Numbered from the stretch's first letter, positions 3,001-19,127 are shown. The stretch is DNA of 19,832 nucleotides from Elusimicrobiota bacterium (GCA_046153645.1 JBJXGI010000059.1:1-19832), one strand, 5' to 3'. Translations and numbers: made by a program. The notes: generated from the sequence alone by a model not told the origin.

Positions 3001-3170
3001 ATGGTTAATACGGCGCCATTTTGGATACGAACAATATCATTAATAATACGGGGCGATGGAACAGCTGGCCAAGCGGTATCGGTAGAAATAATAATATCTG
3101 CGTAAAGGAGAGGACCGACTGAGAAGAAAAAGAAAGCCCCTCCAAAAACAAAACTTAAAAGTTTGCGCAT
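1..3170 (-). CDS. Large secreted right-handed parallel beta-helix repeat protein (partial, runs off the left edge, >1056 aa)
   Basis: Absent from the ORF track because it has no stop in the window. Translated by hand from ATG at 3170: MRKLLSFVFGGAFLFFSVGPLLYA-DIIISTDT (signal-peptide-like), and the same frame is open at position 3 (...VNLQLHVEGDASDM). It has four modules with the motif FTS-x-x-D...P-x-x-G-[DN]-W-x-G-[IL], Asn-rich beta-helix-type strings (IQNSTF, ISNNKF, ISNSNF) and a DARFNDW...SGP...VNYIPWL segment near the left edge. Confidence 0.85.
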   Translation of the reverse strand, partial: MRKLLSFVFGGAFFFFSVGPLLYADIIISTDTAWPAVPSPRIINDIVRIQNGAVLTIPSGIILKFQQETGIVVENGALRAQRVLFTSIKDLTTGLTPRPGDWGGITYLSKNKVSETLLDDCKFFYAGGTSINFTGGALNIKHENSGSQTALLTINKCSFQNNKAGISLESITPCVIQNSTFAFNGMAITSGAFSANGGALIRGNVFENNIAGIHVSGQVAEISNNKFISNQQPIYIYSQGAPLISNNKFSSNTKTLANIVPGVSLREFDTSTILSAGGLDGIEIINTFSLTIPWTLDVKNFPYIMRSRLNIQPSGGLTINPGVAVKLSDSGEIINSGLFHVLGTESEPVIFTSLYDNSVKGNTHLGYNPSSQPNIGDWKGIQGGDHVIIQNALLRYGAGTNFYVSEPYLLLIGNNGNICNSTFEKSNTAIRYVGSSSMLIEGCTIQNNILGINGSDSVAPAQIKNNRFHLNQKALLVKNNVSEVSDNTFTQNSNFCINISSGSGNPFLSQNRFGDNQGFLLYIHPAVHFQDFDSSIILSPNKIEGIIVSGTLTSHETWSSWKFPYLINGVSLNAGSRLILQPGTVVKYFLNQSMNILGSLEANGTQAAPIYFTSYKDDSIGGDTNIYEGPLASPSLGNWVGLTVNSPGKINFNNTYFRFSQQTVKIDSNEPSFISNSNFSNSQIGIYFPPSQNRKTVTISSCTFHQNSYSGVIQEDSVPNNDILISNSLFQKNGVALQIVNAGIRSIDNTFLSNARSIDATGVGTVLILRNSFGNNNSALVRIGGNIQLSGLETSTIISTNSIHAIELMYSGTTGVTTLSPIVWPYYLNNFFIPATGKLSINPGVILKLKGHFLANGELIVNGDENNPVIFTSYKDDLIGGNSNVSEGNVTPQKGDWNGIKLFKPSQISNAIFQYADKSIYSATSSSFTVKNTSFQFVNDGIYLETFHSSSSARYCYFGQATHGVRNTTLQNFDARFNDWNNVSGPADLSDDTNTHGWYNPQGQGVLVSNKVNYIPWLGNQNNELTLPSLQIEEAPVTPSQVVNLQLHVEGDASDM

Positions 3171-3386: not shown

Positions 3387-3776
3387 TTATTTGGAGTCCC
3401 AGTGTACTGACATGAGTCGTTCGATATCAGGAAAACGATTCATTGTATCGGCCTGAAAACAAACACGATCCCATTCATTCCTAGAATATAGAAGTTTTCC
3501 GGTTGAAATAACTTGATGTCTAAGAAAAATGGAAGCTTGATTTAAAATAACCAAATCAACATTTTGATTTTTTAAGAATTTTATCAGTTCAGTTATTAAC
3601 TGAGATTTATAACCATAAGGTATTTTTTTAAGTAAGGCTTTTGAGTCAACCAAAACGGCGATATCAATGTCACTCATTTTATTTGAATTTCCATTGGCAT
3701 AAGATCCAAATAAATAGGCAGCTCTAATCTCTTTTTTGTTTCTGAAAAACCTTTTTAAGGCGCTAAAATTTTTCAT
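3387..3776 (-). CDS. mntA: Minimal nucleotidyltransferase, MntA-family antitoxin (type VII HEPN/MNT TA)
   Basis: AAYLFGSYANGNSNKMSDIDIAVL matches GS-x10-DxD, followed by VDLVILN and a typical C-terminus (HQVISTGKLLY). ATG 3776 preferred over the track's TTG 3782. Confidence 0.85.
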   Translation of the reverse strand: MKNFSALKRFFRNKKEIRAAYLFGSYANGNSNKMSDIDIAVLVDSKALLKKIPYGYKSQLITELIKFLKNQNVDLVILNQASIFLRHQVISTGKLLYSRNEWDRVCFQADTMNRFPDIERLMSVHWDSK

Positions 3777-3779
3777 AGC

Positions 3780-3810
3780 CAAATTCTATAGAATTTGCCC
3801 AAATTGGCAA
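3780..3810 (-). promoter_or_regulatory. Candidate mntA promoter overlapped by palindromic operator-like sites
   Basis: TTGCCA (3810-3805), 16 nt, TAGAAT (3788-3783), 6 nt, ATG. A perfect 18-bp palindrome CAAATTCTATAGAATTTG at 3780-3797 covers the -10, and TTGCC-N6-GGCAA at 3795-3810 covers the -35. Confidence 0.55.
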
Positions 3811-5065: not shown

Positions 5066-5095
5066 TACATGGTAAATAGCCTACATGGTTAATAG
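5066..5095 (+). repeat. 14-bp near-perfect tandem direct repeat at the GT2/ATPase junction
   Basis: TACATGGTAAATAG (5066-5079) and TACATGGTTAATAG (5082-5095), 13/14 identical. Confidence 0.6.
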
Positions 5096-6245
5096 AACCG
5101 CCATCAAACGAATCCAAAATTCAAAAAAAAGCATTCTTTTATTGGGCCCGAGACAAGTAGGAAAATCAACTTTATGTCGCGGGCTTAATCCAGATTTGGT
5201 TATCAATCTTGCTGATGAAGCGCTATTTTTAAAATTTTCTAAGGATCCTGAGAGATTAAAAAGAGAAATAGATTCAATAAAAAGACCGAGTATTATTTTA
5301 ATTGATGAAATTCAAAGAGTTCCTTCATTGTTAAATTCCATACAAGCCTATTTAGACCAGCATTCAAAAACTCGTTTTATTCTCACCGGGTCGAGCGCAC
5401 GTAAATTAAAAAGAGGGGGCGCTAATCTTTTACCTGGAAGAATTATTCTGGAGTATTTAGATCCTTTATCTATTTGGGAACTGGGGAATAAATTCAAATT
5501 AGAAAAAGCATTGAATATTGGGAGCTTGCCCGGTATTTATCTTGACGAAGCGGAATCAAATGAAGTGTTATCAACTTATGTCCAAGTTTATTTGAAAGAA
5601 GAAATTCAAGCCGAGGCGCTAAGTAGAAACATTGGGTCATTTGCTCGTTTTTTAGATGCTGCCGCTGAAGCATCAGGGCAGTGGATTAATTATTCTAAAC
5701 TTGCTAGCGATACCGAAACACCCAAAGAAACCATTCGCCGCTATTATGAGATACTTGAAGATACGCTTATTGTTCACAGAGTCCCCCCCTTTCAATTACA
5801 AAAAAATCATCGTAGATTAAGCCAACGTGATCGGTTTTTCTTTTTTGATGTGGGTGTTCGTAATTCTATTTTAGGATTGGTGAATCAAAACTTACCTTTA
5901 TCTGAGAAAGGTAAGTTATTTGAACAATGGATTGTTCTTCAAGTTATTGGTTTTATTCATGCGCATAAAAAGAGTTGGAAAGTAAGTTCATTTCGTACTG
6001 ACACAGGGTTAGAAGTTGACCTTATTATTGAAACTCCTCAAAAAAATATCGCAGTGGAATGTAAATATAGTCAAAATGTGGGTGTTTCTGATTTGGTGGG
6101 CTTACAAGCTTTTGAAAAGTTATCCAAGAAGAAATGTGAAAAAATTGTGCTCAATCTTTCAACACGTAGGCAACTTTTTCCCACAAAAGAACGGGTTGTA
6201 CACTTTCAAGACTTTTTACTTAAAGAATTGCCAAAAATCTCTTAA
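5085..6245 (+). CDS. AAA_14 / DUF4143 ATP-binding protein (COG1373-type) with C-terminal PD-(D/E)xK-like domain
   Basis: Walker A GPRQVGKST, Walker B ILIDEIQR, LTGSSA, LPGR, FFDVG, GKLFEQW and C-terminal EVDLII...AVECK. Confidence 0.88.
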   Translation: MVNRTAIKRIQNSKKSILLLGPRQVGKSTLCRGLNPDLVINLADEALFLKFSKDPERLKREIDSIKRPSIILIDEIQRVPSLLNSIQAYLDQHSKTRFILTGSSARKLKRGGANLLPGRIILEYLDPLSIWELGNKFKLEKALNIGSLPGIYLDEAESNEVLSTYVQVYLKEEIQAEALSRNIGSFARFLDAAAEASGQWINYSKLASDTETPKETIRRYYEILEDTLIVHRVPPFQLQKNHRRLSQRDRFFFFDVGVRNSILGLVNQNLPLSEKGKLFEQWIVLQVIGFIHAHKKSWKVSSFRTDTGLEVDLIIETPQKNIAVECKYSQNVGVSDLVGLQAFEKLSKKKCEKIVLNLSTRRQLFPTKERVVHFQDFLLKELPKIS

Positions 6246-6321: not shown

Positions 6322-7242
6322 ATGATAAAGACCTTTCAGTTTAAATTTTATTTTTTCCCCTTCTTTCTGCTTTTATATTTGGGCTCTAAACCCATCAAGG
6401 CCATTTCCAATCAAAGCAGTGGCATCCCTGAAGAATGTTCACACCTTGTGAAAAAAGTTTTGATGTTACCTGAAGAAAAAATTGACGTCGGAATGGCGGC
6501 TCTGGCTTTTGCAAAAGAAATATATCCCGATTTAGATATAGCCGCTTACTCAAATAAACTTGACGTTTTGGCTGAGCAAGTGCGGCAAATGTCCAAAGAA
6601 ACTAAAAACCCCGATCAAAGAATTCGATGCCTTAATACGGTCATACTTCTTCATGAAAAATACCAAGGAACTAAAGATCTTGCCACAGCTCGTACATCGC
6701 AGATGTATTACCTTAACCGCGTTTTGGACACCAAACAGGGTAACTGTGTCTCCATGCCACTCCTTTATATTGCTGTGGCAGAGAGATTGGGTTGGCCTAT
6801 TTATCTTGTACATGTACCGGATCATTCGTTTGTCCGCTATGTTGACCCGGCTCTAAAAGAGCAAAACATTGAAGCAACCAGTAATGGCGGAACTGTGTCT
6901 GATGAACAGTACTCAAAAGATTTTTTGGTGAGCCAAAAAGGGAGAAAAAGTGGCGCTTATCTCAGAACGTTAACCCATCGAGAGTTACTGGGAGACTTGG
7001 CGGCTATTAATGGAATTTCTTTCGCCCGACAAAAAAAGAGGTCAACAGCCGTCGCGTATCTAGAATTGGCCACAAAACTAAATCCCAAAAATGTCGCCGC
7101 ATGGAGAAACCTTGCCTACGCCTATCATATATTGGCAAAACACTCAAAAGATGAAGATGCAAAAAAGTATGCCGAGAGAATTAAAGTCATAACAAAAAAA
7201 CTAAATGAACTGGGGTTTGTCGATCCGAAAGACATCTACTAA
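6322..7242 (+). CDS. Exported transglutaminase-like (Transglut_core2/SirB1-like) protein with C-terminal TPR
   Basis: Hydrophobic N-terminus. YLNRVLDTKQGNCVSMPLLYIAVAERLGWPIYLVHVPDHSFVRY...NIEAT gives a Cys/His/acidic candidate triad. TPR-like AVAYLELATKLNPKNVAAWRNLAYAY. Confidence 0.75.
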   Translation: MIKTFQFKFYFFPFFLLLYLGSKPIKAISNQSSGIPEECSHLVKKVLMLPEEKIDVGMAALAFAKEIYPDLDIAAYSNKLDVLAEQVRQMSKETKNPDQRIRCLNTVILLHEKYQGTKDLATARTSQMYYLNRVLDTKQGNCVSMPLLYIAVAERLGWPIYLVHVPDHSFVRYVDPALKEQNIEATSNGGTVSDEQYSKDFLVSQKGRKSGAYLRTLTHRELLGDLAAINGISFARQKKRSTAVAYLELATKLNPKNVAAWRNLAYAYHILAKHSKDEDAKKYAERIKVITKKLNELGFVDPKDIY

Positions 7243-7244
7243 CC

Positions 7245-7949
7245 ATGAGAAAAATTGTTCTCATCTCCATATCATCACTTATTTTTATGACTGGTTGTTT
7301 TAGGACCGCCAATGGAGTTTCTCCCCGGTTCTGGAAAAACCGAGCGGTTCATATTGGTGTTGGGATAAGGGTATTGCCTCCTCATATAGATGTAAACAGA
7401 AAAGATTTATATCGTGAGATGTTGCTCCATAACGATTTCCCAACATTCACTGAAAACGAGAAATACATTATTCAGAAGTTTGTAATAGAAGAATTTAATG
7501 ATGTCGTAAGTGATTTTGTTAGGGAGTTAAACAGATGTGGATTTCAAGCAAAAAAAATTTCTGACTTTGTAATACCAAAATCGGAAAGGAAGACTGAAGT
7601 CGATTTGACTTCAATTGCAAATGAAGCAAAAGTCGATATATTAATCTTGTTTAATGTGCATTCCCTCGGAATTCTAAACCATTATGATAGAAAAAATAAT
7701 CTCATTCAAAGCAGTGCTAAGCTGGGCGTCTACGGATATATGTCAGAAATGAAAAACGGAAAAATGAAGGCGGGTTTTTTCAAGCAACACCTATGGACAA
7801 TGTTTTTTTCAGAAGAAAACGGAACGATTCCCATTGAAGGCGATTGGAGGCAACCGCCAGACTATCCAAAACTAAAATCGGCCCTCAAAGAAGCCATTAC
7901 AAAAGCCAAAGTTTTTTTTATTGAAGATTTTTTTAAACGGGAAGAGTAA
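7245..7949 (+). CDS. Hypothetical lipoprotein
   Basis: MRKIVLISISSLIFMTG-C: basic N-terminus, hydrophobic core, lipobox-like MTGC. Starts 2 nt after the upstream stop. The 3' end overlaps the convergent kinase by 17 bp. Confidence 0.65.
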   Translation: MRKIVLISISSLIFMTGCFRTANGVSPRFWKNRAVHIGVGIRVLPPHIDVNRKDLYREMLLHNDFPTFTENEKYIIQKFVIEEFNDVVSDFVRELNRCGFQAKKISDFVIPKSERKTEVDLTSIANEAKVDILILFNVHSLGILNHYDRKNNLIQSSAKLGVYGYMSEMKNGKMKAGFFKQHLWTMFFSEENGTIPIEGDWRQPPDYPKLKSALKEAITKAKVFFIEDFFKREE

Positions 7950-9531
7950 AAGAAATTTTAGTTCCTTTTCCTATTCCTTCAGATTCAGCCCAAATTTTCC
8001 CTTCGTGAGCTTCTACCCAAGCCTTAGCGATAGCTAACCCAAGGCCTGAGCCTTTGGCTTGGTGTTTACCTTGATAAAAACGATTGAATATTTTTTTTAG
8101 GTCGTCTGATTGTATTCCCCTTCCTTGATCTGATACAGAAAAAATCACAGAGTTTTGTATTTTCTTAAAACTGACAGATATATCGCCTGAGTTCGAAAAT
8201 TTAATGGCATTTGTAAGAATATTAGAAATGATTTGTTTTAGACGAACTTCATCAGCTGGAATGAATAAACTTGAATCTAACGAGAGTTGAAACTTGAGTC
8301 CTTTTTTTTCAACCGCTGGTAATAATAAGTTTATTATTGATCGTGTTACTTCTGAAAGATTTATATTTGTTTTGATTAATTGAAAACTTCCTTCTTGAAT
8401 TTGAGCTATGTTCAGCAAGTTAATAGTCAATTCTTCTAACCGCAGTGAATTACTTTTTATCATTTCGACATATTCTCTGAGTCGTTCCTGATTCAATGCA
8501 GGTTTTTTAATTTCTGTAGATAGTACTTCCAGTGCACCATCAATAGAAGAAAGAGGGCTTTTTATTTCATGGGTAAACCCAGCGGCCAGTTGCCCTTTTA
8601 ACCAAAACTCCTCCTTTGTTAAAAAAGCATAAATAAACGGACCCACGGATAACAGCAGTCCCGATATCAACATACTAAGTCCAAATTCAATGATGTTTCT
8701 CTTAGAGGCACCAAAATGGAAAACAGAAATTAATTTGGGAATAAATAAAGGAATCGTGATGGCAAATAACCCAATATAAATAAGTAAAAGAAGAATAATT
8801 TTTCGATTAACTAAATTAATTTGAAGAAATTGATATCGAATCATTGTATAAGCAATGATAGATAAGAATATCAGCATTGATATATGTCCTGTTACCCATT
8901 GGTTGAGACCTATACAAACCAGAAAATCATTAGCGCCTAAAACAGCGATTGAAAAACCAATAGTAAAATTTAAATATTGTCGTTTTTCTTCAGGGGCAAC
9001 AGAAGATTTATAAGTTATAAATATTTGTTTTAGTGATAGGTAAGTAAACGAAAAGAAAAATATCAACAGAGATGAAAAAAACAAAGGACCCATTAAATTT
9101 GTGGTAATTAGTTTGTTGAACTTCCCCCATTGGGTCAATTGAAGCACAAAAATATCATCAAAATAAAACGCATTCCATAAAGAAAAAATAATCCCAACAA
9201 TAAAGCCTAACATGGGTTTTATTTTAGGTTTCTTCTCTTTACTCCACACAACGGTAAAAAAATAAACGCTTGGCGCAATATAAGGAACAGAAAAAGTGTA
9301 ATTAAGGTATGCCCAAAATAAGCTTTGCGTATGAGAGGTTAATGACAAAACCATAAAAAAACTAAACTGCCATAAAAAGCACGTTAGTGTAATAAGGAAA
9401 AAAGATTGATTAAGCTTGGACTTAGGTTTATATAAAAGAACAATTAAACCAAGTACGGAACAAAGAATAGCCGCAGATAAATAATAAAGCCCTAAAAGGT
9501 TATATTGAAAAGTTTCCTGAATCCATTTCAT
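7933..9531 (-). CDS. Membrane sensor histidine kinase (HisKA_7TM-type polytopic sensor + HisKA + HATPase_c)
   Basis: About 300-aa polytopic N-terminus (KSKLNQSFF...LW; YTMIRYQFL). H-box THEIKSPL, N-box NILTNAIKF, G1 DQGRGI, F-box IFNRFYQ, G2 GSGLGL. Confidence 0.92.
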   Translation of the reverse strand: MKWIQETFQYNLLGLYYLSAAILCSVLGLIVLLYKPKSKLNQSFFLITLTCFLWQFSFFMVLSLTSHTQSLFWAYLNYTFSVPYIAPSVYFFTVVWSKEKKPKIKPMLGFIVGIIFSLWNAFYFDDIFVLQLTQWGKFNKLITTNLMGPLFFSSLLIFFFSFTYLSLKQIFITYKSSVAPEEKRQYLNFTIGFSIAVLGANDFLVCIGLNQWVTGHISMLIFLSIIAYTMIRYQFLQINLVNRKIILLLLIYIGLFAITIPLFIPKLISVFHFGASKRNIIEFGLSMLISGLLLSVGPFIYAFLTKEEFWLKGQLAAGFTHEIKSPLSSIDGALEVLSTEIKKPALNQERLREYVEMIKSNSLRLEELTINLLNIAQIQEGSFQLIKTNINLSEVTRSIINLLLPAVEKKGLKFQLSLDSSLFIPADEVRLKQIISNILTNAIKFSNSGDISVSFKKIQNSVIFSVSDQGRGIQSDDLKKIFNRFYQGKHQAKGSGLGLAIAKAWVEAHEGKIWAESEGIGKGTKISFTLPV

Positions 9532-9551
9532 AAGTAAACATGACCCTTAAA

Positions 9552-9586
9552 TTAAAAACCCCCGCTCTGAAAAAAGAGCGGGGGTT
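9552..9586 (-). terminator. Intrinsic terminator after the FadL-family gene
   Basis: 12-bp perfect stem AACCCCCGCTCT / AGAGCGGGGGTT (9557-9568 and 9575-9586) with a 6-nt loop. On the minus strand it runs into TTTTTAATTT. Confidence 0.85.
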
Positions 9587-9617
9587 GAATGATAATGAAT
9601 AAACCCTTTCTAGGGAA

Positions 9618-10895
9618 CTAGTTCCCTCCCCAACGGTGGGAGAGACCAATAGAGACAATATTAATCATTGTTTCGAATTTGCCATCTTGAGATGAAAGTG
9701 CGTTTCCTGCATTGTTATCAAAACTTCTATCATTAAAGAAGTCAGCAACATATGAAAAATCAAGATTGGTATTACCCCATTTATATCCCGCTCCAGTTGT
9801 AAGTGCTACACGTCCAGAATCAGGAAGAGACGCTTCCAAGGTTTTTGATGGAATGACGCGCTCGTAGGCTAAAACCCCACCTCTTAAACTTAGTTTTTCA
9901 TTGGGTTTATATTCTGTGCCAATAGCAACATTGTTTGAACTTTGCCAGTCTCGGTTAATCGTATGAGTCAAATTGGCATTGTCGTTTTTATATTGAAAGT
10001 TTGTTTGCTTGACGACAGTCCAGTCTGCCCATTCATAATCCGCAAAAATAGTCCACCTATCGGTTGGTTTAAATCCATAGCCGAATGTCCATGTTTGAGG
10101 AAATGAAAATTCTGTTTTGGTGTCCGATTTAAAAGAAGTGCCACCAAAAAGAAAAGCTGCAGTTGGGCCAAGATTTGTCAGTTCTGTTTCACCTTCAATA
10201 GGAACTTTTACTTGGCTACGATAAGAAACTCCAAAGGAGTGCTTTTCATTTGCTTTAAATAATAATCCGGCATTATACCCCCAAGCATCACCATCACCTG
10301 TGATTTTTCCATTACCATCAGTTTCAACTCCAGGGTTAAAATTTACTTTCTGATTTAATTCAGTGTCATAAATATTAAAGTAATCAACCCCAACACCCAG
10401 AGAAACCTTATCATCAAAAGCATACGAAACGGTAGGATTAATCATGTACATTAATAACTTTGACTCAGTCGCATAATATTTAGAAAAACTTGTGTCTTTC
10501 CATTCAGTAACCAATCCATAAGGAGAATTGATACCCAAACCAAAGGCCCAAGGGCTTTCTGTTCTGGAAAAAGAAGCATAAAAATAAGGAACAATAGGAA
10601 CATTAGAATCCATTTTGTCTTTGACTCCAGTCGCTTTCGCTGTATGTTCGGTATTGATGTCTAAATATGCCCCTCCATACTGAATATTGAATCCTTTTAC
10701 ATTTACCAAGCCCGCCGGATTAAAAAATACAGCCGATGGATCATCCGCAACACCAACAAACGAATAACCGTGCCCCGTAACTTTTGCGGAAGTTCCGGAT
10801 TGGTTACTAAGTGCTCCGGAACCTAGTGCGTGAATGTTACTACCACGCAAAAACAAAAGACCAACTGAAACTAGAATTATTCTTTTTACAATCAT
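9618..10895 (-). CDS. OmpP1/FadL/TodX-family outer-membrane channel for hydrophobic molecules
   Basis: Signal peptide ending IHA. Hatch region with VADDPSAVFFNPAGL (conserved NPA). WAFGLGINSPYGL, INPTVSY, SLGVG, WGYNAG, FGVSYRS and LPDSGR strands. Strong SD GGAGG. Confidence 0.92.
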   Translation of the reverse strand: MIVKRIILVSVGLLFLRGSNIHALGSGALSNQSGTSAKVTGHGYSFVGVADDPSAVFFNPAGLVNVKGFNIQYGGAYLDINTEHTAKATGVKDKMDSNVPIVPYFYASFSRTESPWAFGLGINSPYGLVTEWKDTSFSKYYATESKLLMYMINPTVSYAFDDKVSLGVGVDYFNIYDTELNQKVNFNPGVETDGNGKITGDGDAWGYNAGLLFKANEKHSFGVSYRSQVKVPIEGETELTNLGPTAAFLFGGTSFKSDTKTEFSFPQTWTFGYGFKPTDRWTIFADYEWADWTVVKQTNFQYKNDNANLTHTINRDWQSSNNVAIGTEYKPNEKLSLRGGVLAYERVIPSKTLEASLPDSGRVALTTGAGYKWGNTNLDFSYVADFFNDRSFDNNAGNALSSQDGKFETMINIVSIGLSHRWGGN

Positions 10896-10908
10896 TTTTT
10901 CCTCCTAT

Positions 10909-12339
10909 TTAGCTATAAACAAACCTAGATAATTTTCCTTTAATCATTGAAGAAATGTGAACAATGAGTTTTCTATCCTCTTCATTAAATAAATTTGATT
11001 TTTTTTTCTTACCCAAAACAAGTACTCCAATTAGATCATCTTTAAATATAATTGGGGCACATAAGTCAGCATTAAGCCATCGCATTGTTCTTCTCATTTT
11101 CCAGAAAGTAGTTTTAACTCCTGGCAATGATCTGTTCCCTAGTGAAGTGAGATCTTCTTCAATAATGATACCTTCTTTGAATAATCTTCTTTCGGTTAAG
11201 AGGGTTTTAATTAGAAAGTCATTATGATCAATTTTCACCCCCACTTTATTTACAGGTAAGTCTTTGAAATTGTTACTAGGTGAAAAAACATATTTTGTTG
11301 TTTGATTTATCCATACGCCTATTCCAGCATGATTAACATCCCAAATTCGTTTTAAATGCATTGATAGTGTCTCACAAAAGTTAACTATAGAATCTGTTTT
11401 TTCAAGATCTAACAGCAAAGATCCAATTAATTCATTCATATCCGGTGTTTTAAAAATTACTCTATCAACAAAGTTAATAATACTTTTTCGAATGAATCCA
11501 AAAAACATAACAGATAAGCTAGTAATAATTAAACTTAATAATCCGGTTTGAATATGAAGCTTACGACTGACACTGGTTTCAATAAAATAAAAGAAAAGAA
11601 TAAAGGAAGAAAAAACAATAATAAACGAAATTCCAAAAACAATTCCCCATCTGACCAATAAATTGAAATCCATCAAACGATAGATCAGTATGGAATATCC
11701 AACCATGAAAACGTAAACAGTTGTTAAGGGGACCCCAAACGGAAAAAGAGGGATATTATATACTGGAAAAAAAGCAGTACTGCCACCGCCAAACCCAATA
11801 GCAGTTCCAATAAATAAGTATAGAATTTGTCGTCTTTGTAAACCTTCGGATTTTTTAAACGCTCGAAATAAGTGTATATGCGAGAAAATAACACATAAAG
11901 AAAAATATGCGGAATAAATATTATAGTAAGACCCAGGTGAGGTGTAAAAATTGAATGGTGGCTTAGGAATCGCAACTGAGAGTTGTCCCATGAAATTTAA
12001 GCCAAGAAACAGGAAACAGAAAAAGTAATTTAAAAACAAAACCCGAGAGAATTTTTTAGCCAATTGTAAAAAATCTAATGAAAAATGAAGAAAGAAAGAA
12101 GGAATAAAAATTGCGCCAATGTAATGAATTTTAATCCAAAAGTTAGCTTCTACCTCAGAAGATGATACTGTCATTAATCCTAATCCGAGACTCCAAAAAG
12201 AAACTGCAAAACAAAAAAAACTCCATATTGTAACAGGGGTTGATTTTAATGCTTTCCATCTATTAATTAAGATTAGCAATCCAAATAAAAAACTAATTAG
12301 AGAAGTAATCTCACAAATAATAGAAAATAATTTAAGCAT
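10909..12339 (-). CDS. HisKA_7TM-type membrane sensor + GAF-like domain, no kinase or other output domain
   Basis: WSFFCFAVSFWSLG, FIPSFFLHF, GFGGGSTAFFPVYNIP and YSILIYRLMD in the membrane part. FVDRVIF linker. C-terminal GAF-like LCAPIIFKDDLIGVLVLGKKKKSNLFNEEDRKLI, then stop. No H-box or G-boxes. Overlaps the upstream gene by 8 bp. Confidence 0.8.
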   Translation of the reverse strand: MLKLFSIICEITSLISFLFGLLILINRWKALKSTPVTIWSFFCFAVSFWSLGLGLMTVSSSEVEANFWIKIHYIGAIFIPSFFLHFSLDFLQLAKKFSRVLFLNYFFCFLFLGLNFMGQLSVAIPKPPFNFYTSPGSYYNIYSAYFSLCVIFSHIHLFRAFKKSEGLQRRQILYLFIGTAIGFGGGSTAFFPVYNIPLFPFGVPLTTVYVFMVGYSILIYRLMDFNLLVRWGIVFGISFIIVFSSFILFFYFIETSVSRKLHIQTGLLSLIITSLSVMFFGFIRKSIINFVDRVIFKTPDMNELIGSLLLDLEKTDSIVNFCETLSMHLKRIWDVNHAGIGVWINQTTKYVFSPSNNFKDLPVNKVGVKIDHNDFLIKTLLTERRLFKEGIIIEEDLTSLGNRSLPGVKTTFWKMRRTMRWLNADLCAPIIFKDDLIGVLVLGKKKKSNLFNEEDRKLIVHISSMIKGKLSRFVYS

Positions 12340-14005
12340 TATTGTTTATAGGTTTATTTCTTCCAAGTAACTCATGGGCCAATACATATGTCCCATTTAC
12401 AATAGCTGCGCAAATGCTTATTTCGCCAGCAAGAGCGGTAACAGTAATTATTTCGGCGAGCTTTTTGGCCTTATTTTCTCCTAAACAGTCCATCAAACTT
12501 AAACATTCTGCAGCAGTTTTCAACGATGTCCCTCCTCCGACAGTGCCTATAAGTAAACTACTAAGGTATACACTAAAATACATATCACCAGATGCGGTCA
12601 CCTCACATGTACTTATTCCGATGTGAGAATTAGCAACAGAAGCAACATCCTGTCCAGTTGCAATAAAAATTGCAGTAATTGCATTAGAAAAATGTCCATT
12701 TGCCCCAATCATTCCAGCATGACTATCTGATAATAAAGTTCTGTAAACATATCGTTGCATTTTCTCTGGTGTAGTATTTAATAAAGAGATTACTTTTCTG
12801 GGGATTGTCACTTCTGCTGTTACAGTTTTTCCGTATCCACTTATTAATCCGTTAAAAGTAGCTTTTTTATTTGCATTAAAATTTGAGCGTAACCAAAACT
12901 CCTCAGGTTTAACCGTATTAACAATTTTCTTACAAACAGCATCAGTTGCTTTGCAAGCCATATTCATTCCCATAGCATCCGAAGTCGAATAATGAAAATT
13001 GGCATTTACTTTTCTGCCATCAAGAATAGTTTCAATTTTTATCAATTTCAAATATTTACTGGTATTTTCAGCTGTTTCTTTCAGAATTAAAAAATTTATT
13101 TTCAACCATTTACTGAAAGCTTCAGCTTCAAAAAGATTTTTAAAAACAAAAATAGGTCCAATTTTTAACTCATCCCTATTAATTTTTACATTCGCTCCGC
13201 CAGAACGAGCAATAATGTGTGCACCTAATGAATATGAAGTAATTAATGCCCCCTCAGTAGTTGCCATAGGAACAAAAAACTGACCTTTTGCATGATCTCC
13301 ATTTACAAATAAAGGTCCTATTACACCGACTGGGATTTGAACTGCACCAATGGGGTTTTCAATTTTTCCTCGTAAACTTTGAGAAGAATCCACAAAGTTT
13401 CCAATGTTTGACAATGAGCAGCTTTCGGAAGTTTCTAACCAACTTCTTAAAGAAGAGATCGATTCATCCGAATAGTCATTTAACTTTAAAACAGGAGGAA
13501 TTGCTTTTTGCTTATTTCGTTTAATTTTCGCTGGCAGCTTGCTTAAAATATAATCAAAACGTCTTTCGTTTTTTCTTTGTTCGAGAGTTGATATTTTTAG
13601 AAATTCTCGTCTTTCTTTTAATCTTCTCTCTCTAATTGGGTCCATTTCGCCATTTTCGGTAAAGTTATTAATAAAATCTCGCCAAGCCTCAGGGATTTTT
13701 CGAAATTTAAAACCACATTTTAATTTTTCAGATGAGTACCACGTTAAAAGCGCTGATAAGTTAAACTTCAAAGAACCAGCATTAATTTCGATTATACATT
13801 CAGAGAAATTTTTACTGGGAATAGGTGAATCTATTGAACATCCTAATCCAAAAAGATTAATAGAAATACATTTTCCGGAAAATTCAATTTTTTTCATATC
13901 GAATTTAATGGATATTTTCACTGGATATGAAACTTTGTACCTCTTCTTATTTTGGAAAAAAAGATATTCTGAATTTAAAGGGTCATTGTTAGTGTTTGTT
14001 GCCAT
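12332..14005 (-). CDS. N-terminal PilZ-like domain fused to a class I HMG-CoA reductase-like domain
   Basis: HMGR motifs ENPIG, PMATTEG, DAMGMNM, GQD, GTVGGGT, AGEIS...HELLGR. The first ~115 aa have a PilZ pattern (KRYKVSYPV...GKCISINLFGLG...ALLTW...CGFKF), followed by an ERRLKERR...QRKNERR linker. Confidence 0.88.
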   Translation of the reverse strand: MATNTNNDPLNSEYLFFQNKKRYKVSYPVKISIKFDMKKIEFSGKCISINLFGLGCSIDSPIPSKNFSECIIEINAGSLKFNLSALLTWYSSEKLKCGFKFRKIPEAWRDFINNFTENGEMDPIRERRLKERREFLKISTLEQRKNERRFDYILSKLPAKIKRNKQKAIPPVLKLNDYSDESISSLRSWLETSESCSLSNIGNFVDSSQSLRGKIENPIGAVQIPVGVIGPLFVNGDHAKGQFFVPMATTEGALITSYSLGAHIIARSGGANVKINRDELKIGPIFVFKNLFEAEAFSKWLKINFLILKETAENTSKYLKLIKIETILDGRKVNANFHYSTSDAMGMNMACKATDAVCKKIVNTVKPEEFWLRSNFNANKKATFNGLISGYGKTVTAEVTIPRKVISLLNTTPEKMQRYVYRTLLSDSHAGMIGANGHFSNAITAIFIATGQDVASVANSHIGISTCEVTASGDMYFSVYLSSLLIGTVGGGTSLKTAAECLSLMDCLGENKAKKLAEIITVTALAGEISICAAIVNGTYVLAHELLGRNKPINNNA

Positions 14006-14064
14006 ATTATTTTATTTTCCTGTGTTTCATTAATTCAAGAAAATTTTAACCTATTAAAGGATGA

Positions 14065-15687
14065 TTAAAAAGCGGAAATTTGCTGATAACTAGGTATTTT
14101 GAATAAAATCCTGCTCCCATTTTGAAAGGCTTCATCCACCCAAATTTTACCACTATGCGCCTCAATCCAAGACTTTGCCACGGCTAAGCCAATTCCAGCT
14201 CCTTTAACAGAATTCTTTCCTTGAAAAAACGGGTTAAACACCTTTCCAATATCGCTTTTAGGAATTCCGATGCCTTCATCTTCTATTGAGAATGTTAAAT
14301 AGTCGTCTCTAAGATCAGCGTTGATACTAATCTTGCCTTTAGAAGGTGTGAATTTCAATGCATTTGATAATAAATTGGAAATAACTATTTTTATTTTGTC
14401 AGGGTCTAAAAACACTTTTTCTGAAAGAATTTTTTCATAGATTATCTTTATATTTTTTTGCTCTGCTAAAGGTAAGTAGGTAACTAAAACTTCTTTAATG
14501 AGTAAATCAAATTCAATCCATTCTTTTTTAACGGTAACGTGAGAATTGGTTATTTGAGCTAGCCTAAGTAAATCGGTTATGAAAAATTCTAAACGACGGG
14601 TATTATTTTCAATGATTTTTAAATAATCTGAAACAAGATGGTTTTCTTTTAAATCAGCGGTTTTTATCATTTGAATTGCCCCTTGAATTGTTCCCAGTGG
14701 ACTTTTTAATTCGTGAACCAAACCTGTTGAGTGGTTCATTTTTAACCAAAAGTTATTTCGCTGTATTAATGTGTAAATATATGGACCCAGAGAAAAAATT
14801 GCCCCAAAGAACACGCTTAAGATTAATATCTTGATAATTAAAGGGAGAGATATTCCACCTACACCAGAGCGTACATAGAAGATCGATATGGGAACGGCTA
14901 AAGTTAATAAAAAACTATAAACAAAAAACACAATAGAAAGTTTTCTAACCAAACCGGACAAGTCTAGAAAACTACTCTGGATAATTTGTCTAGCAATAAT
15001 AAAAAAATAAATACCTAAAGATATATAGCCAGAAGCATAAATAGGTACTTTATGGGCCACCAGATAATCTGTTCCTCCGGTATAAGCAATGAAAATACCA
15101 ACTAAATATATTTTTAACGTTCTTCGTTCATCTGTAGATTCAGCTTTTTTCAAATCTTTCAATAGATCAACCACAATAAGAATAAAGCCACCGAACATGT
15201 TGAGGTACAATAAAATCTCATAAATTGAAGCCATGAGGTTGTCACGATATATAGGGAATCTTCCCCATGTTAATTGATTAAAATCAATCATGTGTTCATT
15301 TCCCCTAATCATCCAAGCCATTAAAAAAAATGAAACCATAAAGTCGATCAATATGAACTTATTGTTACGAGTTCTTCCCGAAATAACACAGGTAAAATAA
15401 TAGAATCCAAGTGAAATGAACGGGATCCCAAAGGTATAACCCAATTTAAACCAAAACCTCGCTTGAATATTTGTTTCGACTAAAGAAATCATTCCAAAAC
15501 AAAAACACCAAATAAAGGTTGGAATGGTGGCGACAAAAAATGATCTATTTATTTTTGACTTATGTCCCCCTAATAACACAATTAAACCGGCAGATAAATC
15601 AAAAATAGCAACTGCTACAACTAAGAAGCCATGAATATTAAATCTGAAATAACTTTGAAGTGCCAAAAGTAAATTTTCCATGTTCAT
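14065..15687 (-). CDS. Membrane sensor histidine kinase (HisKA_7TM-type + HisKA + HATPase_c)
   Basis: Polytopic N-terminus (KSKINRSFF...IW; GGTDYL). VHELKSPL, NLLSNALKF, DEGIGI, VFNPFFQ, GAGIGL. ATG 15687 overlaps the upstream TAA (TAATG) and is preferred over TTG 15708. Confidence 0.92.
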   Translation of the reverse strand: MNMENLLLALQSYFRFNIHGFLVVAVAIFDLSAGLIVLLGGHKSKINRSFFVATIPTFIWCFCFGMISLVETNIQARFWFKLGYTFGIPFISLGFYYFTCVISGRTRNNKFILIDFMVSFFLMAWMIRGNEHMIDFNQLTWGRFPIYRDNLMASIYEILLYLNMFGGFILIVVDLLKDLKKAESTDERRTLKIYLVGIFIAYTGGTDYLVAHKVPIYASGYISLGIYFFIIARQIIQSSFLDLSGLVRKLSIVFFVYSFLLTLAVPISIFYVRSGVGGISLPLIIKILILSVFFGAIFSLGPYIYTLIQRNNFWLKMNHSTGLVHELKSPLGTIQGAIQMIKTADLKENHLVSDYLKIIENNTRRLEFFITDLLRLAQITNSHVTVKKEWIEFDLLIKEVLVTYLPLAEQKNIKIIYEKILSEKVFLDPDKIKIVISNLLSNALKFTPSKGKISINADLRDDYLTFSIEDEGIGIPKSDIGKVFNPFFQGKNSVKGAGIGLAVAKSWIEAHSGKIWVDEAFQNGSRILFKIPSYQQISAF

Positions 15688-17220
15688 TAAATCGGCAACG
15701 TAAACCAAAACGTCGCCCCCTTCCCCACTCCCTCTGAGTCGGCAAAGATCTCTCCACCGTGGGCTTCTATCCAGGTTTTGGCGATGGTAAGACCGATGCC
15801 ACTGCCTTTGGAGTTTTTATTGTTTTTACCACGATAGAAACGGTCAAAAACATAAGGCAAATCAATGTGATCAATACCAATTCCTGTATCAATAACTGAA
15901 ACAATTAACTTATCCTTATCACACTTGGTTTCTATTGATATTTTTCCAGAATCTGTAAATTTTATGGCGTTAGATAATAAATTAGAGATAACCAGCTCTA
16001 GTTTATTTTCATCTGCTTTTACGAGAAGTTTATTTGATTGGTCCTTTATTTGAAGTTGGATATTTTTTTTGTTTTGCAAGAGATTCATATTGAGGAATTA
16101 ATTTTTCAATGACGGTTGAAATTTCAACATCATGGAAATTTTCTTCACACATTTTTTGATTTGGCTGATATATCTGGAGAAGCGATTGAACATAATCTGT
16201 TAAACGGTCCGAATTTTTTTGAATCATTTCTATATATTCTTCTTTATTGCCTTGGTGATGTTTAATCATATCTAGTGCGCCATGAATGGCTGAGAGTGGG
16301 CTTTTGAGTTCATGCGTTAAAGCAGAAAAATCCCCTTCTTGAAAGTATTGGTTGCGTTTAATTAAATAAGCGTAAATAAATGGTCCCGTTGAAAGAACAC
16401 AGGCAACCATAATAATTTCAAAGAAAAAAAGTGAAAAAGGCATATAAAGAGTAGAAATTATTTTTTTATGCAAGAGATACACAACTGGAATTGAAACAAG
16501 AATTAAACCAATGTAAAGGATGATCCCCAAAGTAGCTCTTCTGAGAAAAATTCGAACATCCAAAAGACTATACTTCAAAATGGCATAAGCCATAATAATG
16601 GGATAAATGCCTAATAAAAAATTTCCATAGGGGTAAATATCAACATAAAAATTGGGAAGGAAACATAAAAAACCACCGAAATAACCAATAGAAGTCGCAA
16701 TAAGAAAATACTTAATTTGTGTTCTTTTTCTAAAGGAAACCTTTCGCATTGAAACAAAGAGCTTGTATTGACACAGTAATATGAGGCCTGCCCACCACAA
16801 GAAGAAAACAGGGAAAAGGATTCCCATCCGGGCATAAAAAAATTCACCAAAAAGAAGTTCCGTTTTGTTAAAGAAGTATTGAGTTGGAAGCAACAATAAG
16901 AAAAATAAAGCAATCAGATAGTGAGTTATAACTAAGCTTGTTTTTGACTTTTCTATAAATACGCTAACAAAATGATAAAAAAGAGGTGAAATCCAAATAA
17001 CGCCTAAAGCATATGCCAAAGTACAATAGCGCATGCCCAATTCAGAATTAATAGAGTTACTTCCGATAAAATAACTACCAATTCCCCAGCTTGAGGCAGC
17101 AATTGTAAAAACAAACCACAACTTCCCAACCAATTCATTTCTGCTTTTTAAATATACCAAGAATCCAAATATTAAATTTGAAATCGCGCCGAATACGCCA
17201 GACAAGGCAAAAGCTGTCAT
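15687..17220 (-). pseudogene. HisKA_7TM-type histidine kinase split by a +1 frameshift in an A8 tract
   Basis: ORF 16030-17220 has the TM sensor and H-box THELKSPL but no ATPase domain. ORF 15687-16088 is the HATPase (NLLSNAIKF, DTGIGI, GSGIGL). Removing one A from the T8 run at 16063-16070 gives YESLAKQKNIQLQIK and a single 510-aa kinase. Confidence 0.88.
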
Positions 17221-17345
17221 AAATTATATTGCAATTTATATATATAGAATAAATGATTGGTTAACACATAAACCGCCAGCCACAGGCAGGTAATGCAATT
17301 GAAGAGGGCGCCGGCTTGGTTGAAATCTAGGTTAGTAGGGGACAA
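17217..17345 (-). CDS. Small 42-aa ORF with one hydrophobic helix; possible remnant of a 7TM-kinase 5' end
   Basis: TTG directly after the regulator's TGA. Product (M)SPTNLDFNQAGALFNCITCLWLAVYVLTNHLFYIYKLQYNL. Its TGA overlaps the next ATG (ATGA). No clear SD. Confidence 0.35.
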   Translation of the reverse strand: MSPTNLDFNQAGALFNCITCLWLAVYVLTNHLFYIYKLQYNL

Positions 17346-18032
17346 TCAGTCTTCGTCGGCTTCGAAACGGTAGCCAATTCCTTTCAAACTTTTGATCCAT
17401 TCACCGTATTTTCCTATCTTTCGGCGGATCTGGTCGACATGAACATCAATGGTGCGAGTGGAGCCCGTGTATTCAATGCCCCAAATGGCTTCTGATATGA
17501 CAGGTCTGGTTAAAACACGCCCTTTTCGTTGCATGAAATAGCCCAGGAGTTGAAATTCTTTGGGTGTAAAAACAACATTTTTATTATTGACCGTGACATT
17601 GTAGCTTGAAAAATCAAGCGTGATAGGACCGGCATGGACGCGTTCAGTGGCAGGTTCATTAAAGTTTCTTCTCAAAACGGTTTTTAGGCGAGCTAACAAT
17701 TCGCGCTTACGAAATGGCTTTGAAATATAGTCTTCCGCTCCCATTTCAAGACCCACCACGACATCGGTTTCATCGGCTTTAACGCTGATCATTATAATGG
17801 GAATATTTTGTGTTTTAGGATCACTTTTAAGTTTCTTGCATACTTGAAACCCGTCTATTTCAGGAAGTCGAATATCGAGCAAAATAATATCGGGTGGGTT
17901 TGCTTGAATTTTTCGAATTCCATCTACAGGGTGTTCAGCCGAAACAACGGTATAACCTTCCGATTGCAATAAATCGGTGGCTATTTTGATCATATCTGGT
18001 TCGTCATCGATGATAAAAACGCGTGGATTCAA
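17346..18032 (-). CDS. OmpR/PhoB-family DNA-binding response regulator
   Basis: REC domain (IIDDE, LLDIRLP, GAEDYISKPF) plus winged helix (FTPKEFQLL, TRTIDVHVDQIRRKIG, IKSLKGIGYRF). TTG start. Confidence 0.93.
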   Translation of the reverse strand: MNPRVFIIDDEPDMIKIATDLLQSEGYTVVSAEHPVDGIRKIQANPPDIILLDIRLPEIDGFQVCKKLKSDPKTQNIPIIMISVKADETDVVVGLEMGAEDYISKPFRKRELLARLKTVLRRNFNEPATERVHAGPITLDFSSYNVTVNNKNVVFTPKEFQLLGYFMQRKGRVLTRPVISEAIWGIEYTGSTRTIDVHVDQIRRKIGKYGEWIKSLKGIGYRFEADED

Positions 18033-18081: not shown

Positions 18082-18651
18082 TCATTCCGAAATATTTTTG
18101 GCTTCTTTGCAAAAAGCCTGATAGGCGGTAGGGTTAATAGCGGAAAATAAAACCGCTTCAATTTTTGTTCGTCGACGGTGAAAATATTGGTTAACTTCTT
18201 CCATCATGTATTTGGCAACGGCTTCAAACGGAGGCGATACTTCAGCAGACCCCAATAAAGGAAATGCAATCGATTTTAACCTTAAAAATTCTGCATATCG
18301 AATGGTGCGGTCCACCGCTTGTTGAATGACCCGTTTCATTTTTTCGGGGTCTTTTTCGCCCATAAGTACCGTCATAAAAATATATTTAACATTGAGTTTT
18401 CCCCCTGGAAATACCACAACTTTTCCAAAGGACTCATGGGTTTGAGGTTTTTCTTGACTTATTTGTTGGCCAGCGGCATGTGAAACAATCCGAGCCAAAC
18501 CCGAATTGAGACTAAATTTTTGATCGACAGGACAAACCAACGCATCAGCTTTCAGGGTAAGAATATCGCCTTTATGAAGAGACAACTTTCCATCTCCAAT
18601 ATGAAGCTGGACTGTTCCGCCTTCATCTGTAAGACGAATTTTTTGAGCCAT
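18082..18651 (-). CDS. Macro-domain protein with degenerate catalytic loops
   Basis: LSLHKGDILTLKADALV...AAG, GKVVVFPGGKLNVKYIF, LKSIAFPLLG follow the MacroD layout. ATG 18651 lies 2 nt after the PilZ stop and is preferred over 18735. Confidence 0.82.
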   Translation of the reverse strand: MAQKIRLTDEGGTVQLHIGDGKLSLHKGDILTLKADALVCPVDQKFSLNSGLARIVSHAAGQQISQEKPQTHESFGKVVVFPGGKLNVKYIFMTVLMGEKDPEKMKRVIQQAVDRTIRYAEFLRLKSIAFPLLGSAEVSPPFEAVAKYMMEEVNQYFHRRRTKIEAVLFSAINPTAYQAFCKEAKNISE

Positions 18652-18653
18652 TT

Positions 18654-19127
18654 TTATTTTGGCACGTGGGACTTGGGATGTTTTAGTTTGGCTGGTTTTT
18701 CGCAGAGATCCCAGTAAGAACAGCCATGAAAACAAATGGTGGGCGCTTTTTCTTTGATTCTATTTTCACATTCCCAATAAGCCTCGCCCATATGGATCAG
18801 TTGCTTCGAATGATCGGAATCAATCTTTGTAAATTCAATACCAATGGCAGAAGTGCTTTCTTTCGGGCGAGACCATGCCAGTCGGCCTTCTACTTCAAAA
18901 CGGTCGAAACCGGGTAAATGCATGGTGAGTTTTAAATTAGGTTTTCCATCGATCACTCCCATTAACACCAAATCCATTCCGCCGGCAGATAAATTGGTGA
19001 CCACTCCAGGAACGGTTCTATGTGATTTTCCATGGTTATCCATGATGGCAAGTTCAATGGGTTCTGCTAAATCTTTAATGACAGGAAGGCGTTTATGCTT
19101 GCGGCGTTCATCGTGTTTGAGTGTCAT
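18654..19127 (-). CDS. PilZ-domain (c-di-GMP-binding) protein with Cys4 C-terminal extension
   Basis: ERRKHKR (RxxxR), NLSAGG ([DN]xSxxG), VEGRLAW, IGIEF. The tail is C-x11-C-x3-C-x5-C. SD-like AAGAGGGG before ATG. Confidence 0.88.
   Translation of the reverse strand: MTLKHDERRKHKRLPVIKDLAEPIELAIMDNHGKSHRTVPGVVTNLSAGGMDLVLMGVIDGKPNLKLTMHLPGFDRFEVEGRLAWSRPKESTSAIGIEFTKIDSDHSKQLIHMGEAYWECENRIKEKAPTICFHGCSYWDLCEKPAKLKHPKSHVPK

Follow-up and report, generated by a model that had tools for sequence, protein, structure and literature searches.

What does a lone relative of hydroxymethylglutaryl-CoA (HMG-CoA) reductase do in the midst of an array of membrane sensors? The question is raised by a stretch of 19,832 nucleotides from an Elusimicrobiota bacterium (GCA_046153645.1, JBJXGI010000059.1:1-19832), contig C48 of a genome of 2.63 Mb that is 99.7% complete; this stretch, at its full length, is called the window below. 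On its minus strand (18032-7933), an initial annotation made from the sequence had described one co-oriented run: an OmpR-type regulator, two seven-transmembrane (7TM) kinases of which the first is frameshifted, a reductase of the HMG-CoA reductase (HMGR) fold with a PilZ-like N-terminus, a 7TM-GAF protein, a FadL-family channel, a terminator and a last 7TM kinase. It had proposed that these genes form a lipid-signal system. The list of open reading frames (ORFs) and their Pfam matches bear out the gene content, and all eight elements were found at the coordinates in Table 1.

The reductase is an orphan in its host, its aligned substrate pocket resembles neither of the two described types of its fold, and its gene is followed by that of a 7TM sensor whose lineage accompanies such reductases across phyla. 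The reading that we favor, with a probability of about 0.4, is a closed loop of lipid making and lipid sensing, in which a receiver-gated acyl-thioester reductase would produce a lipid that is itself read, or whose chemical relative is read, by the 7TM-GAF protein.

An orphan reductase and its pocket

The reductase contains a six-stranded N-terminal domain (residues ~22-118), a helical linker (123-156) and a class-I HMGR-type catalytic domain (186-549). Its AlphaFold2 (AF2) model, with a predicted local distance difference test score (pLDDT) of 78.5, shows the six strands at 22-118, then a helix, a long helical linker and the catalytic domain. The genome holds this one HMGR copy. It gave no match to HMG_CoA_synt_N (mevalonate kinase and decarboxylase were not searched), while DXR and IspH, enzymes of the methylerythritol phosphate (MEP) pathway, were both found. 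The reductase is therefore an orphan HMGR in a host that uses the MEP pathway. The initial annotation had seen no gene for HMG-CoA synthase, mevalonate kinase, decarboxylase or beta-oxidation in the window, and no HMG-CoA synthase, mevalonate-pathway or beta-oxidation family matched among the window ORFs scanned.

Genes of this type carry the database label 'hydroxymethylglutaryl-CoA reductase (NADPH)', which would wrongly imply a mevalonate pathway. The window reductase scores 319.6 bits against TIGR00533, the NCBI equivalog model of class-I HMGR, below the cut-off of 441.8, and its nearest solved relative is the archaeal HMGR 6hr7 (1.6e-80, 274.5 bits). Residues were mapped through HMMER alignments to 6hr7 and to human HMGR, whose numbering is used here. 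The catalytic tetrad E559/K691/D767/H866 is intact (E251, K380, D453 and H544 in the window protein). In the HMG pocket, R590, S684, K735 and L862 correspond to I282, R373, K393 and Y540, so that K735 alone is retained. The enzyme thus shares Pfam family, fold and catalytic tetrad with class-I HMGRs (6hr7, 1dq8), from which it differs in its orphan status in an MEP host, its score below the TIGR00533 cut-off, the change of three of four pocket residues and its receiver-type fusion.

A departure from HMG-CoA chemistry has a precedent in this fold. Grossi et al. (2025, ISME J, PMC11948995) describe FcrA in Ca. Promineifilum breve (Pb-FcrA) and a homolog in Natronomonas pharaonis as members of a large bacterial and haloarchaeal branch of class-I HMGRs that reduces acyl-CoA of C14 and longer to fatty alcohol with NADPH. 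FcrA neither reduces HMG-CoA nor is inhibited by simvastatin, keeps the catalytic tetrad, and occurs in genomes that lack the mevalonate pathway. It departs from HMGR at three positions: S684 is Glu in N. pharaonis, a lysine printed as Lys795, whose numbering fits K735, is replaced by small residues, and L862 becomes bulky. Its extra N-terminal domains are Lad or acyl carrier protein (ACP) domains, and in the main text the words 'PilZ' and 'signal' do not occur.

Set against this description, the window reductase is alike in its HMGR fold with the complete tetrad (EKDH), the bulky aromatic residue at the L862 position (Y540), the host without a mevalonate pathway, the possession of an extra N-terminal domain, and its place in a bacterial group that excludes the canonical, mostly archaeal rows. 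It is unlike FcrA in having Arg (R373) rather than Glu or Asp at S684, in keeping K735 (K393) where FcrA replaces it, and in having Ile at R590. Its N-terminus is PilZ-like rather than Lad or ACP, it has a 7TM-GAF partner, and its host gave no match to wax ester synthase/diacylglycerol acyltransferase (WS/DGAT), a weak negative in that the control genomes gave none either.

A wider survey places this pocket among its relatives. When 1.84 billion cluster representatives were scored with the window protein, 127 of the best 150 had a full catalytic domain that could be read at the pocket. They comprise 10 canonical enzymes (R-S-x-L), 72 FcrA-like enzymes (R-E/D-x-F/W), 31 of the window kind (I/V/L/F-R/K/Q-K/R-F/Y/H, the window itself being I-R-K-Y) and 14 others. 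The label 'FcrA-like' rests on the residue criteria of PMC11948995 and on the PF25653 N-terminal domain; E or D at S684 is shared by all 72, since the group was so defined, and at K735 they mostly carry I, V, T or K, with a residue other than Lys in the majority. In a FastTree phylogeny of the 127 rows, the window kind forms a 35-row group (support 92), separate from an 81-row FcrA-like group (support 93).

An IQ-TREE phylogeny of 80 locus proteins places the window in a bacterial group (support 100) that it shares with an FcrA-like R-E-K-F clade of Bacteroidota, Spirochaetota and one Bacillota metagenome-assembled genome (MAG), and within that group in a distinct branch of 24 rows (support 95). 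All 42 rows apart from that group (40 archaeal, 2 of Patescibacteria type) are canonical R-S-K-L. The pocket classes were defined by 4 columns of the alignments that also gave the trees, 4 among ~390. As aligned, the pocket of the window reductase is a third signature, unlike both HMGR and FcrA.

Fusions observed in the FcrA-like branch, with Pfam run on 41 of the best representatives, join the catalytic domain to AMP-binding and PP-binding domains, to the PF25653 N-terminal domain or to EcKL/APH kinase domains. Some of these proteins (among P0026, P0034, P0039, P0046, P0060, P0042 and P0043) reach 900-1500 aa and join AMP-binding and carrier domains to the HMGR fold, an arrangement that resembles the reductive release domain of nonribosomal peptide synthetases; others add the EcKL/APH-type kinase domain.

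A mevalonate role is disfavored because of the missing HMG_CoA_synt_N match, the presence of DXR and IspH, the TIGR00533 score below cut-off and the three pocket changes. Reduction of an acyl thioester is proposed in its place because the tetrad is kept, the FcrA fold reduces acyl-CoA of C14 and longer, the trees group the enzyme with the R-E-K-F clade, and lipid genes neighbor its relatives. Judged from these alignments and gene contexts, the likely reaction of the window reductase is not the formation of mevalonate but the reduction of an acyl thioester, either acyl-CoA or acyl-ACP, which would yield a long-chain lipid of the alcohol or aldehyde type.

Pairing of the reductase with a 7TM sensor

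The initial annotation had staked its proposal on a recurring linkage of the reductase to 7TM kinases or FadL. This linkage was sought with our own hidden Markov models (HMMs) of the channel, the 7TM domain and the N-terminal domain of the enzyme, built from the window and two relatives and run over the enzyme-bearing loci of genome and metagenome contigs. The set comprises 162 loci with an HMGR match, the window included, of which 142 have at least 700 bp of downstream flank; L009 was dropped because it duplicates locus L007. Of the 142, 14 have a 7TM ORF as the next gene downstream, in the same orientation. These are 11 of the 29 loci with the window's signature and 3 of the 24 with other signatures (F-A-K-F type), and the gene is absent from that place in all 89 canonical or FcrA-like loci with enough flank (0 of 75 and 0 of 14, respectively).

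A further locus with 466 bp of downstream flank (L144) and two further Elusimicrobiota genomes bring the total to 17 loci, which fall in 5 Elusimicrobiota genomes, 3 Nitrospirota, 1 Planctomycetia, 1 Spirochaetales and 7 metagenome contigs, the metagenome loci not all being independent. The linkage to a 7TM gene is thus found in four named phyla: Elusimicrobiota, Nitrospirota, Planctomycetota and Spirochaetota. Within the phylum of the host, the enzyme is present in 5 of 301 genomes, its own counted, and the 7TM gene adjoins it in all 5; among closer relatives it is present in 3 of 61. One locus (L089) is rearranged: its 7TM genes lie 2.5 kb upstream of the enzyme and 1.1 kb downstream of it.

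The two genes are also tightly arranged. In the window they overlap by 8 nt, the start of the 7TM-GAF gene lying over the stop of the reductase gene, and start and stop codons overlap or almost touch in most of the 7TM-linked loci. Wherever the contig is long enough, Pfam identifies the partner as HisKA_7TM plus GAF. Its output domain varies: HisKA/HATPase_c in most loci, HD-GYP in L045, and none in the window. The pairing of the enzyme with one sensor lineage crosses phyla.

That a single lineage is involved is indicated by a tree of the 7TM domains, in which 12-13 of the 14 HMGR-adjacent domains fall in one group with a moderate support of 84-86, the unlabelled rows having been chosen for their homology to the sensor of the window. 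Outside this group lie most of the remaining 7TM paralogs from these loci and from the host genome. The 7TM domain of the window's frameshifted kinase is sister to the HMGR-adjacent 7TM domain of L118 (support 99), and the two remaining kinases of the window are sisters of each other.

The 7TM-GAF protein of the window lacks a kinase. It was considered as a truncated kinase, and this was rejected because kinase-less relatives share its length (472, 479, 471 and 489 aa, against 476 aa in the window). Its AF2 model (pLDDT 87.2) consists of seven helices with a beta-hairpin (121-135) and ends in a GAF fold. Foldseek matched this model to nothing in the PDB at E <= 0.001, and VIA-align placed it near bundles of the G-protein-coupled receptor (GPCR) type with Z scores of 13-16 (best Z 16.4, root-mean-square deviation 3.9, 207 aligned) and near GAF domains with Z 14.8. 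The modeled likeness to GPCRs is one of architecture, with a Z near the level of a helical-bundle arrangement, and no homology is claimed. An ESM Atlas look-up of the sensor returned other HisKA_7TM clusters only, with kinase, HD-GYP or PAS partners, and in the available text of PMC5847659 no ligand is assigned to HisKA_7TM.

The window is rich in such domains. Six HisKA_7TM (PF16927) matches were found in the whole genome, and four of them are in the window, at 70.8, 35.0, 34.2 and 30.2 bits against a cut-off of 28.6. The lowest belongs to the kinase beside the reductase (match at 14959-15618); its 7TM region was not detected in the ORF Pfam scan and was seen by the genome search and by our own 7TM HMM (2.3e-86, the HMM being built partly from the same sequence). 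The four 7TM domains are old paralogs because their mutual identity is only 16-30%, a range that rules out recent duplication of their genes.

Receiver domains, channel and the gene run

The initial annotation had called the N-terminus of the enzyme a PilZ domain. In the window copy, this label falls under the threshold (PF07238, E 0.013, 16.2 bits against a cut-off of 22.5), and it stands through aligning homologs that exceed it (5e-08 in L008, 3.8e-10 in L171). Among the window-kind enzymes, in the same Pfam survey of representatives, 16 carry single or tandem PilZ domains, 2 carry REC, 1 an AfsA hotdog domain and 1 a 4HBT thioesterase-like domain. An alignment of 15 proteins of the PilZ type, the window included, has the N-terminal RxxxR in 14 and [DN]xSxxG, ~30 residues later, in 10. 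We take these to be the motifs by which PilZ domains bind cyclic di-GMP (c-di-GMP). The host genome contains 11 GGDEF matches. In relatives, the domain content suggests that the enzyme is under signaling control, with a PilZ (c-di-GMP) or REC (phosphoryl) domain gating the reductase.

PilZ domains that act as c-di-GMP effectors are known in fusion with enzymes, as in the cellulose synthase BcsA. Most relatives of the reductase resemble these proteins in that PilZ is joined to a catalytic domain; the window copy differs in lacking both c-di-GMP motifs.

The FadL-family channel, which lies 13 nt beyond the 7TM-GAF gene, meets its family model (PF03349, 192.2 bits) and falls under the NF007988 equivalog (88.6 bits against a cut-off of 585). 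It is 27-31% identical to the channels found beside the enzyme elsewhere (E 1e-38 to 1e-74), compared with 24% (E 1e-10) to the next-best FadL-like copy of its own host, and by sequence the subfamily beside the enzyme is specific to the module. The initial annotation had the channel move the proposed signal. Across loci it is not a core part: it adjoins the enzyme in 5 of 18 (the window, L007, L008, L011 and L089), a count that is a lower bound in that four other loci have less than 230 bp of upstream flank.

The other neighbors are drawn from lipid chemistry and from signaling. Among 7TM-linked loci, the enzyme follows a ketosynthase (KS) and ACP in L099, which has three consecutive 7TM kinases as does the window, follows a PilZ::KS fusion in L144, and bears a 4HBT thioesterase-like domain in L096. 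A methyltransferase gene lies near it in L089, and MMPL and OEP genes in L045. Signaling genes then follow: GAF-GGDEF in the L007 operon, REC and a cyclase in L008, and REC in L118, L130 and L172. Two loci with the window's signature and no 7TM neighbor adjoin WS/DGAT (L114) and genes for a short-chain dehydrogenase/reductase (SDR), an acyltransferase and a hydrolase (L033). In the scanned ORFs that neighbor the 17 loci with a 7TM link, no acyltransferase, AGPS or WS/DGAT family was found.

A different pocket type, V-F-K-F, lies between a KS pair and a flavin adenine dinucleotide (FAD) amine-oxidase-like gene in L050, L101 and L103, and occurs without the KS pair in L110; one of these four records is an Acidobacteriota MAG. 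The V-F-K-F loci look like a cluster of the type-II polyketide synthase kind with an HMGR-fold releasing reductase.

The run in the window (Table 1) has one DNA-binding regulator, the OmpR-type protein, which falls under all NCBIfam equivalog cut-offs. The split kinase changes frame at a homopolymer of eight A residues (~16064-16071), which may mark a switch prone to slippage, a pseudogene or an error of the assembly. A hairpin scan of the window overall found 12 hairpins against 8.8 expected in shuffles, which is no enrichment. No crotonase, aminotransferase or methyltransferase family was matched by Pfam in the run.

Table 1. Features of the run and of the PilZ gene upstream of it, in window coordinates.
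Feature	Coordinates	Strand	Evidence and remarks
Stand-alone PilZ protein	18654..19127	-	PilZ 5.7e-12; upstream of the run, same strand
OmpR/PhoB-type response regulator, REC + winged-helix	17346..18032	-	Pfam Response_reg 1.2e-31, Trans_reg_C 5.2e-23
Split 7TM histidine kinase	15687..17220	-	Pfam: HisKA_7TM + HisKA at 17220-16030; HATPase_c at 16088-15687
7TM histidine kinase, 7TM + HisKA + HATPase_c	14065..15708	-	HisKA 1.2e-10, HATPase_c 3.8e-25
PilZ-like::HMGR-fold reductase, 557 aa	12332..14005	-	HMG-CoA_red 1.3e-100, residues 186-549
Kinase-less 7TM-GAF sensor protein, 476 aa	10909..12339	-	HisKA_7TM 2e-19, weak GAF_2 match
FadL/TodX-family outer-membrane channel	9618..10895	-	Toluene_X 1.4e-56
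Terminator-like hairpin with T-run, between FadL and last kinase	9557..9586	-	12-pair stem, 8 G-C, loop of 6
7TM histidine kinase, HisKA_7TM + HisKA + HATPase_c	7933..9531	-	Pfam 3e-08, 3.2e-12, 1.8e-29

The stand-alone PilZ protein is a possible accessory part of the module. Such a protein also lies inside the module of genome G214 (L172:13001-13447). Just upstream of the regulator, a Macro-domain gene with a TTG start (18082-18735, minus strand) overlaps this PilZ gene by 82 nt, and its true start probably lies further downstream.

On the other side of the run, a gene with Transglut_core2 and TPR domains is found a few kb away (6322-7242, plus strand), as it is in a genome of the same family (G003, L008:3864-4859, minus strand). 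Large proteins of the RHS-repeat or TcdB-midN type stand upstream of the module in a Planctomycetia locus (L013:460-5772) and a Nitrospiria locus (L020:36-3134), probably by chance. The remaining window genes have no tie to the finding: a right-handed beta-helix/NosD-repeat protein of more than 1056 aa that extends past the window edge (3-3170, minus strand), a Pol-beta-type nucleotidyltransferase (3387-3782, minus strand) and an AAA_14 and DUF4143 ATPase (5085-6245, plus strand).

A proposed lipid-sensing loop and its rivals

The sequences show which genes are present, how they are ordered and overlap, that the reductase is an orphan, that the pair recurs and which residues occupy the pocket positions; from this we infer the following roles for the substrate, the product, the sensor and the channel. 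The orphan reductase would turn an acyl thioester into a lipid of the long-chain alcohol or aldehyde type. In the inner membrane, the 7TM-GAF protein would read this lipid or a chemical relative of it. In the window, the three 7TM kinases, paralogs of one another, would then relay the signal to the one OmpR-type regulator, which would set expression of the reductase and of the FadL-type channel, the latter giving a hydrophobic molecule passage through the outer membrane. Among relatives, the reductase may also be gated after translation by the PilZ (c-di-GMP) or REC (phosphoryl) domain fused to it, and the output of the sensor would vary between kinase, HD-GYP phosphodiesterase and none. Sensing of a lipid is preferred over sensing of an arbitrary cue because the sensor type is constant across the 17 loci.

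Such a layout has known counterparts. In the lipid-signal quorum systems RpfF/RpfC, CqsA/CqsS, LqsA/LqsS and PhcB/PhcS, a synthase stands beside a polytopic membrane kinase. The run in the window is alike in that an enzyme predicted to make a lipid lies next to a multi-pass sensor kinase feeding a response regulator. It is unlike them in that its enzyme is of HMGR type, not a crotonase, aminotransferase or methyltransferase, its sensor is HisKA_7TM plus GAF, of an unrelated family, and the enzyme bears a receiver domain of its own. A bolder version of the loop would make it a new class of lipid signaling, in which a c-di-GMP- or phospho-gated synthase of the HMGR fold makes a diffusible alcohol or aldehyde autoinducer, GPCR-like 7TM-GAF proteins act as receptors, a dedicated FadL provides entry, and gene transfer has carried the module into four or more phyla whose bacteria are mostly uncultured. 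We consider this version unlikely.

Several observations weigh against the loop itself. The pocket retains K735 and gains an Arg at S684, where FcrA is acidic and often small or hydrophobic at K735, and the kept Lys and added Arg suggest that a polar or acidic compound, and not a simple fatty acyl chain, may be the substrate. The window PilZ has QNKKR for RRxxxR and SINLFG for [DN]xSxxG, and with neither c-di-GMP motif it probably does not bind c-di-GMP in the canonical manner. The catalytic His is lost in 4 of 15 7TM-linked copies, 2 of which have also lost the Glu: EKDF (H866F) in L011 and L118, and QKDD (E559Q and H866D) in L008 (G003) and L144. The sensor gene still adjoins all four, and the pairing therefore does not always need catalysis. 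Of the 29 enzymes of the window's pocket class, 18, mostly from Actinomycetota, have no 7TM neighbor. FadL, absent beside most loci, is an accessory and not a core part. The moderate support of the 7TM tree, with its rows chosen as homologs of the window's sensor, and the partial dependence among metagenome loci count on the same side. The receiver domains that the enzyme carries would fit a sensor of an unrelated cue just as well.

That last fit leads to the main rival, in which the 7TM sensors read a cue unrelated to the chemistry of the enzyme (membrane stress, for example, or a lipid of a host or of the environment that comes in via FadL), and the reductase is a regulated output that alters the envelope or surface, its product being unsensed. 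PilZ and REC domains usually identify an effector that acts under c-di-GMP or a kinase, and the output of the sensor sometimes matches the input of the enzyme (HD-GYP with PilZ in L045, a GAF-GGDEF gene in the L007 operon). To our knowledge, the known autoinducer synthases lack receiver domains; their presence on the enzyme is typical of a signaling output and unlike those synthases. An arbitrary cue, however, would not be expected to leave HisKA_7TM as the partner in all 17 loci, mostly with GAF and never replaced by another sensor type, nor the adjacent 7TM domains clustered in their tree, and we judge this rival somewhat unlikely. A plainer possibility dispenses with signaling as the purpose: an ordinary FcrA-type reductase would turn fatty acids that enter through FadL into a supply of fatty alcohols for making wax esters or ether lipids, and the kinases would merely tune a metabolic operon. 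The chemistry is established for FcrA (PMC11948995), the relatives in L114 and L033 have WS/DGAT and acyltransferase neighbors, and the host has 3 AMP-binding enzymes and 1 acyl-CoA dehydrogenase. This supply role is nevertheless distinctly doubtful: the scans found no lipid-assembly family beside the 7TM-linked loci and, weakly given the silent control genomes, no WS/DGAT in the host, the pocket is unlike FcrA at two of three discriminating positions, and the enzyme is rare in its phylum.

The degenerate copies raise the further possibility that the HMGR-like domain binds acyl-CoA or NADPH as a metabolic sensor and signals to the 7TM-GAF protein by contact, with catalysis secondary or lost. 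The pairing is kept in these copies, and the overlapping start and stop codons suggest joint production of both proteins. Since all four catalytic residues are retained in the window copy and in 10 of the other 14 linked copies, we regard this as improbable. Least credible of all is a true HMG-CoA reductase that makes or degrades mevalonate in an unrecognized pathway. The strong family match (PF00368), the 6hr7 match and the intact catalytic residues speak for it; the lack of an HMG-CoA synthase match beside DXR and IspH, the score under the equivalog cut-off, the replacement of R590, S684 and L862, and the separation from the canonical, mostly archaeal clade (support 100) make it highly improbable. 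The loop of lipid making and lipid sensing is the reading to which we return.

How much of this is new? The initial annotation knew of no HMGR-fold enzyme in a comparable role. FcrA (PMC11948995) already provides the reduction of a thioester to an alcohol on a lipid; the pairing with a sensor was found undescribed. Already known, then, are the HMGR fold as an acyl reductase (since 2025) and the layout of a lipid enzyme beside a membrane kinase. Apparently new are the subclade with its pocket signature, the PilZ and REC fusions, and the constant pairing with HisKA_7TM-GAF sensors: PilZ-HMGR or REC-HMGR fusions, the signature and the pairing were not found in the literature searched (open-licence papers and bioRxiv).

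HMG-CoA reductase is among the best-studied enzyme folds, and its fatty-alcohol-making branch was shown only in 2025. The present loci point to a further branch with a pocket signature of its own, tied to signaling by receiver domains and, across phyla, by a dedicated 7TM sensor. If the sensor does read the lipid of the enzyme, this would provide a candidate ligand class for HisKA_7TM and a new example of c-di-GMP control of lipid chemistry. We know of no described cell-to-cell signals in Elusimicrobiota or Nitrospirota, and in phyla such as these the module would then possibly represent a new family of lipid signals.

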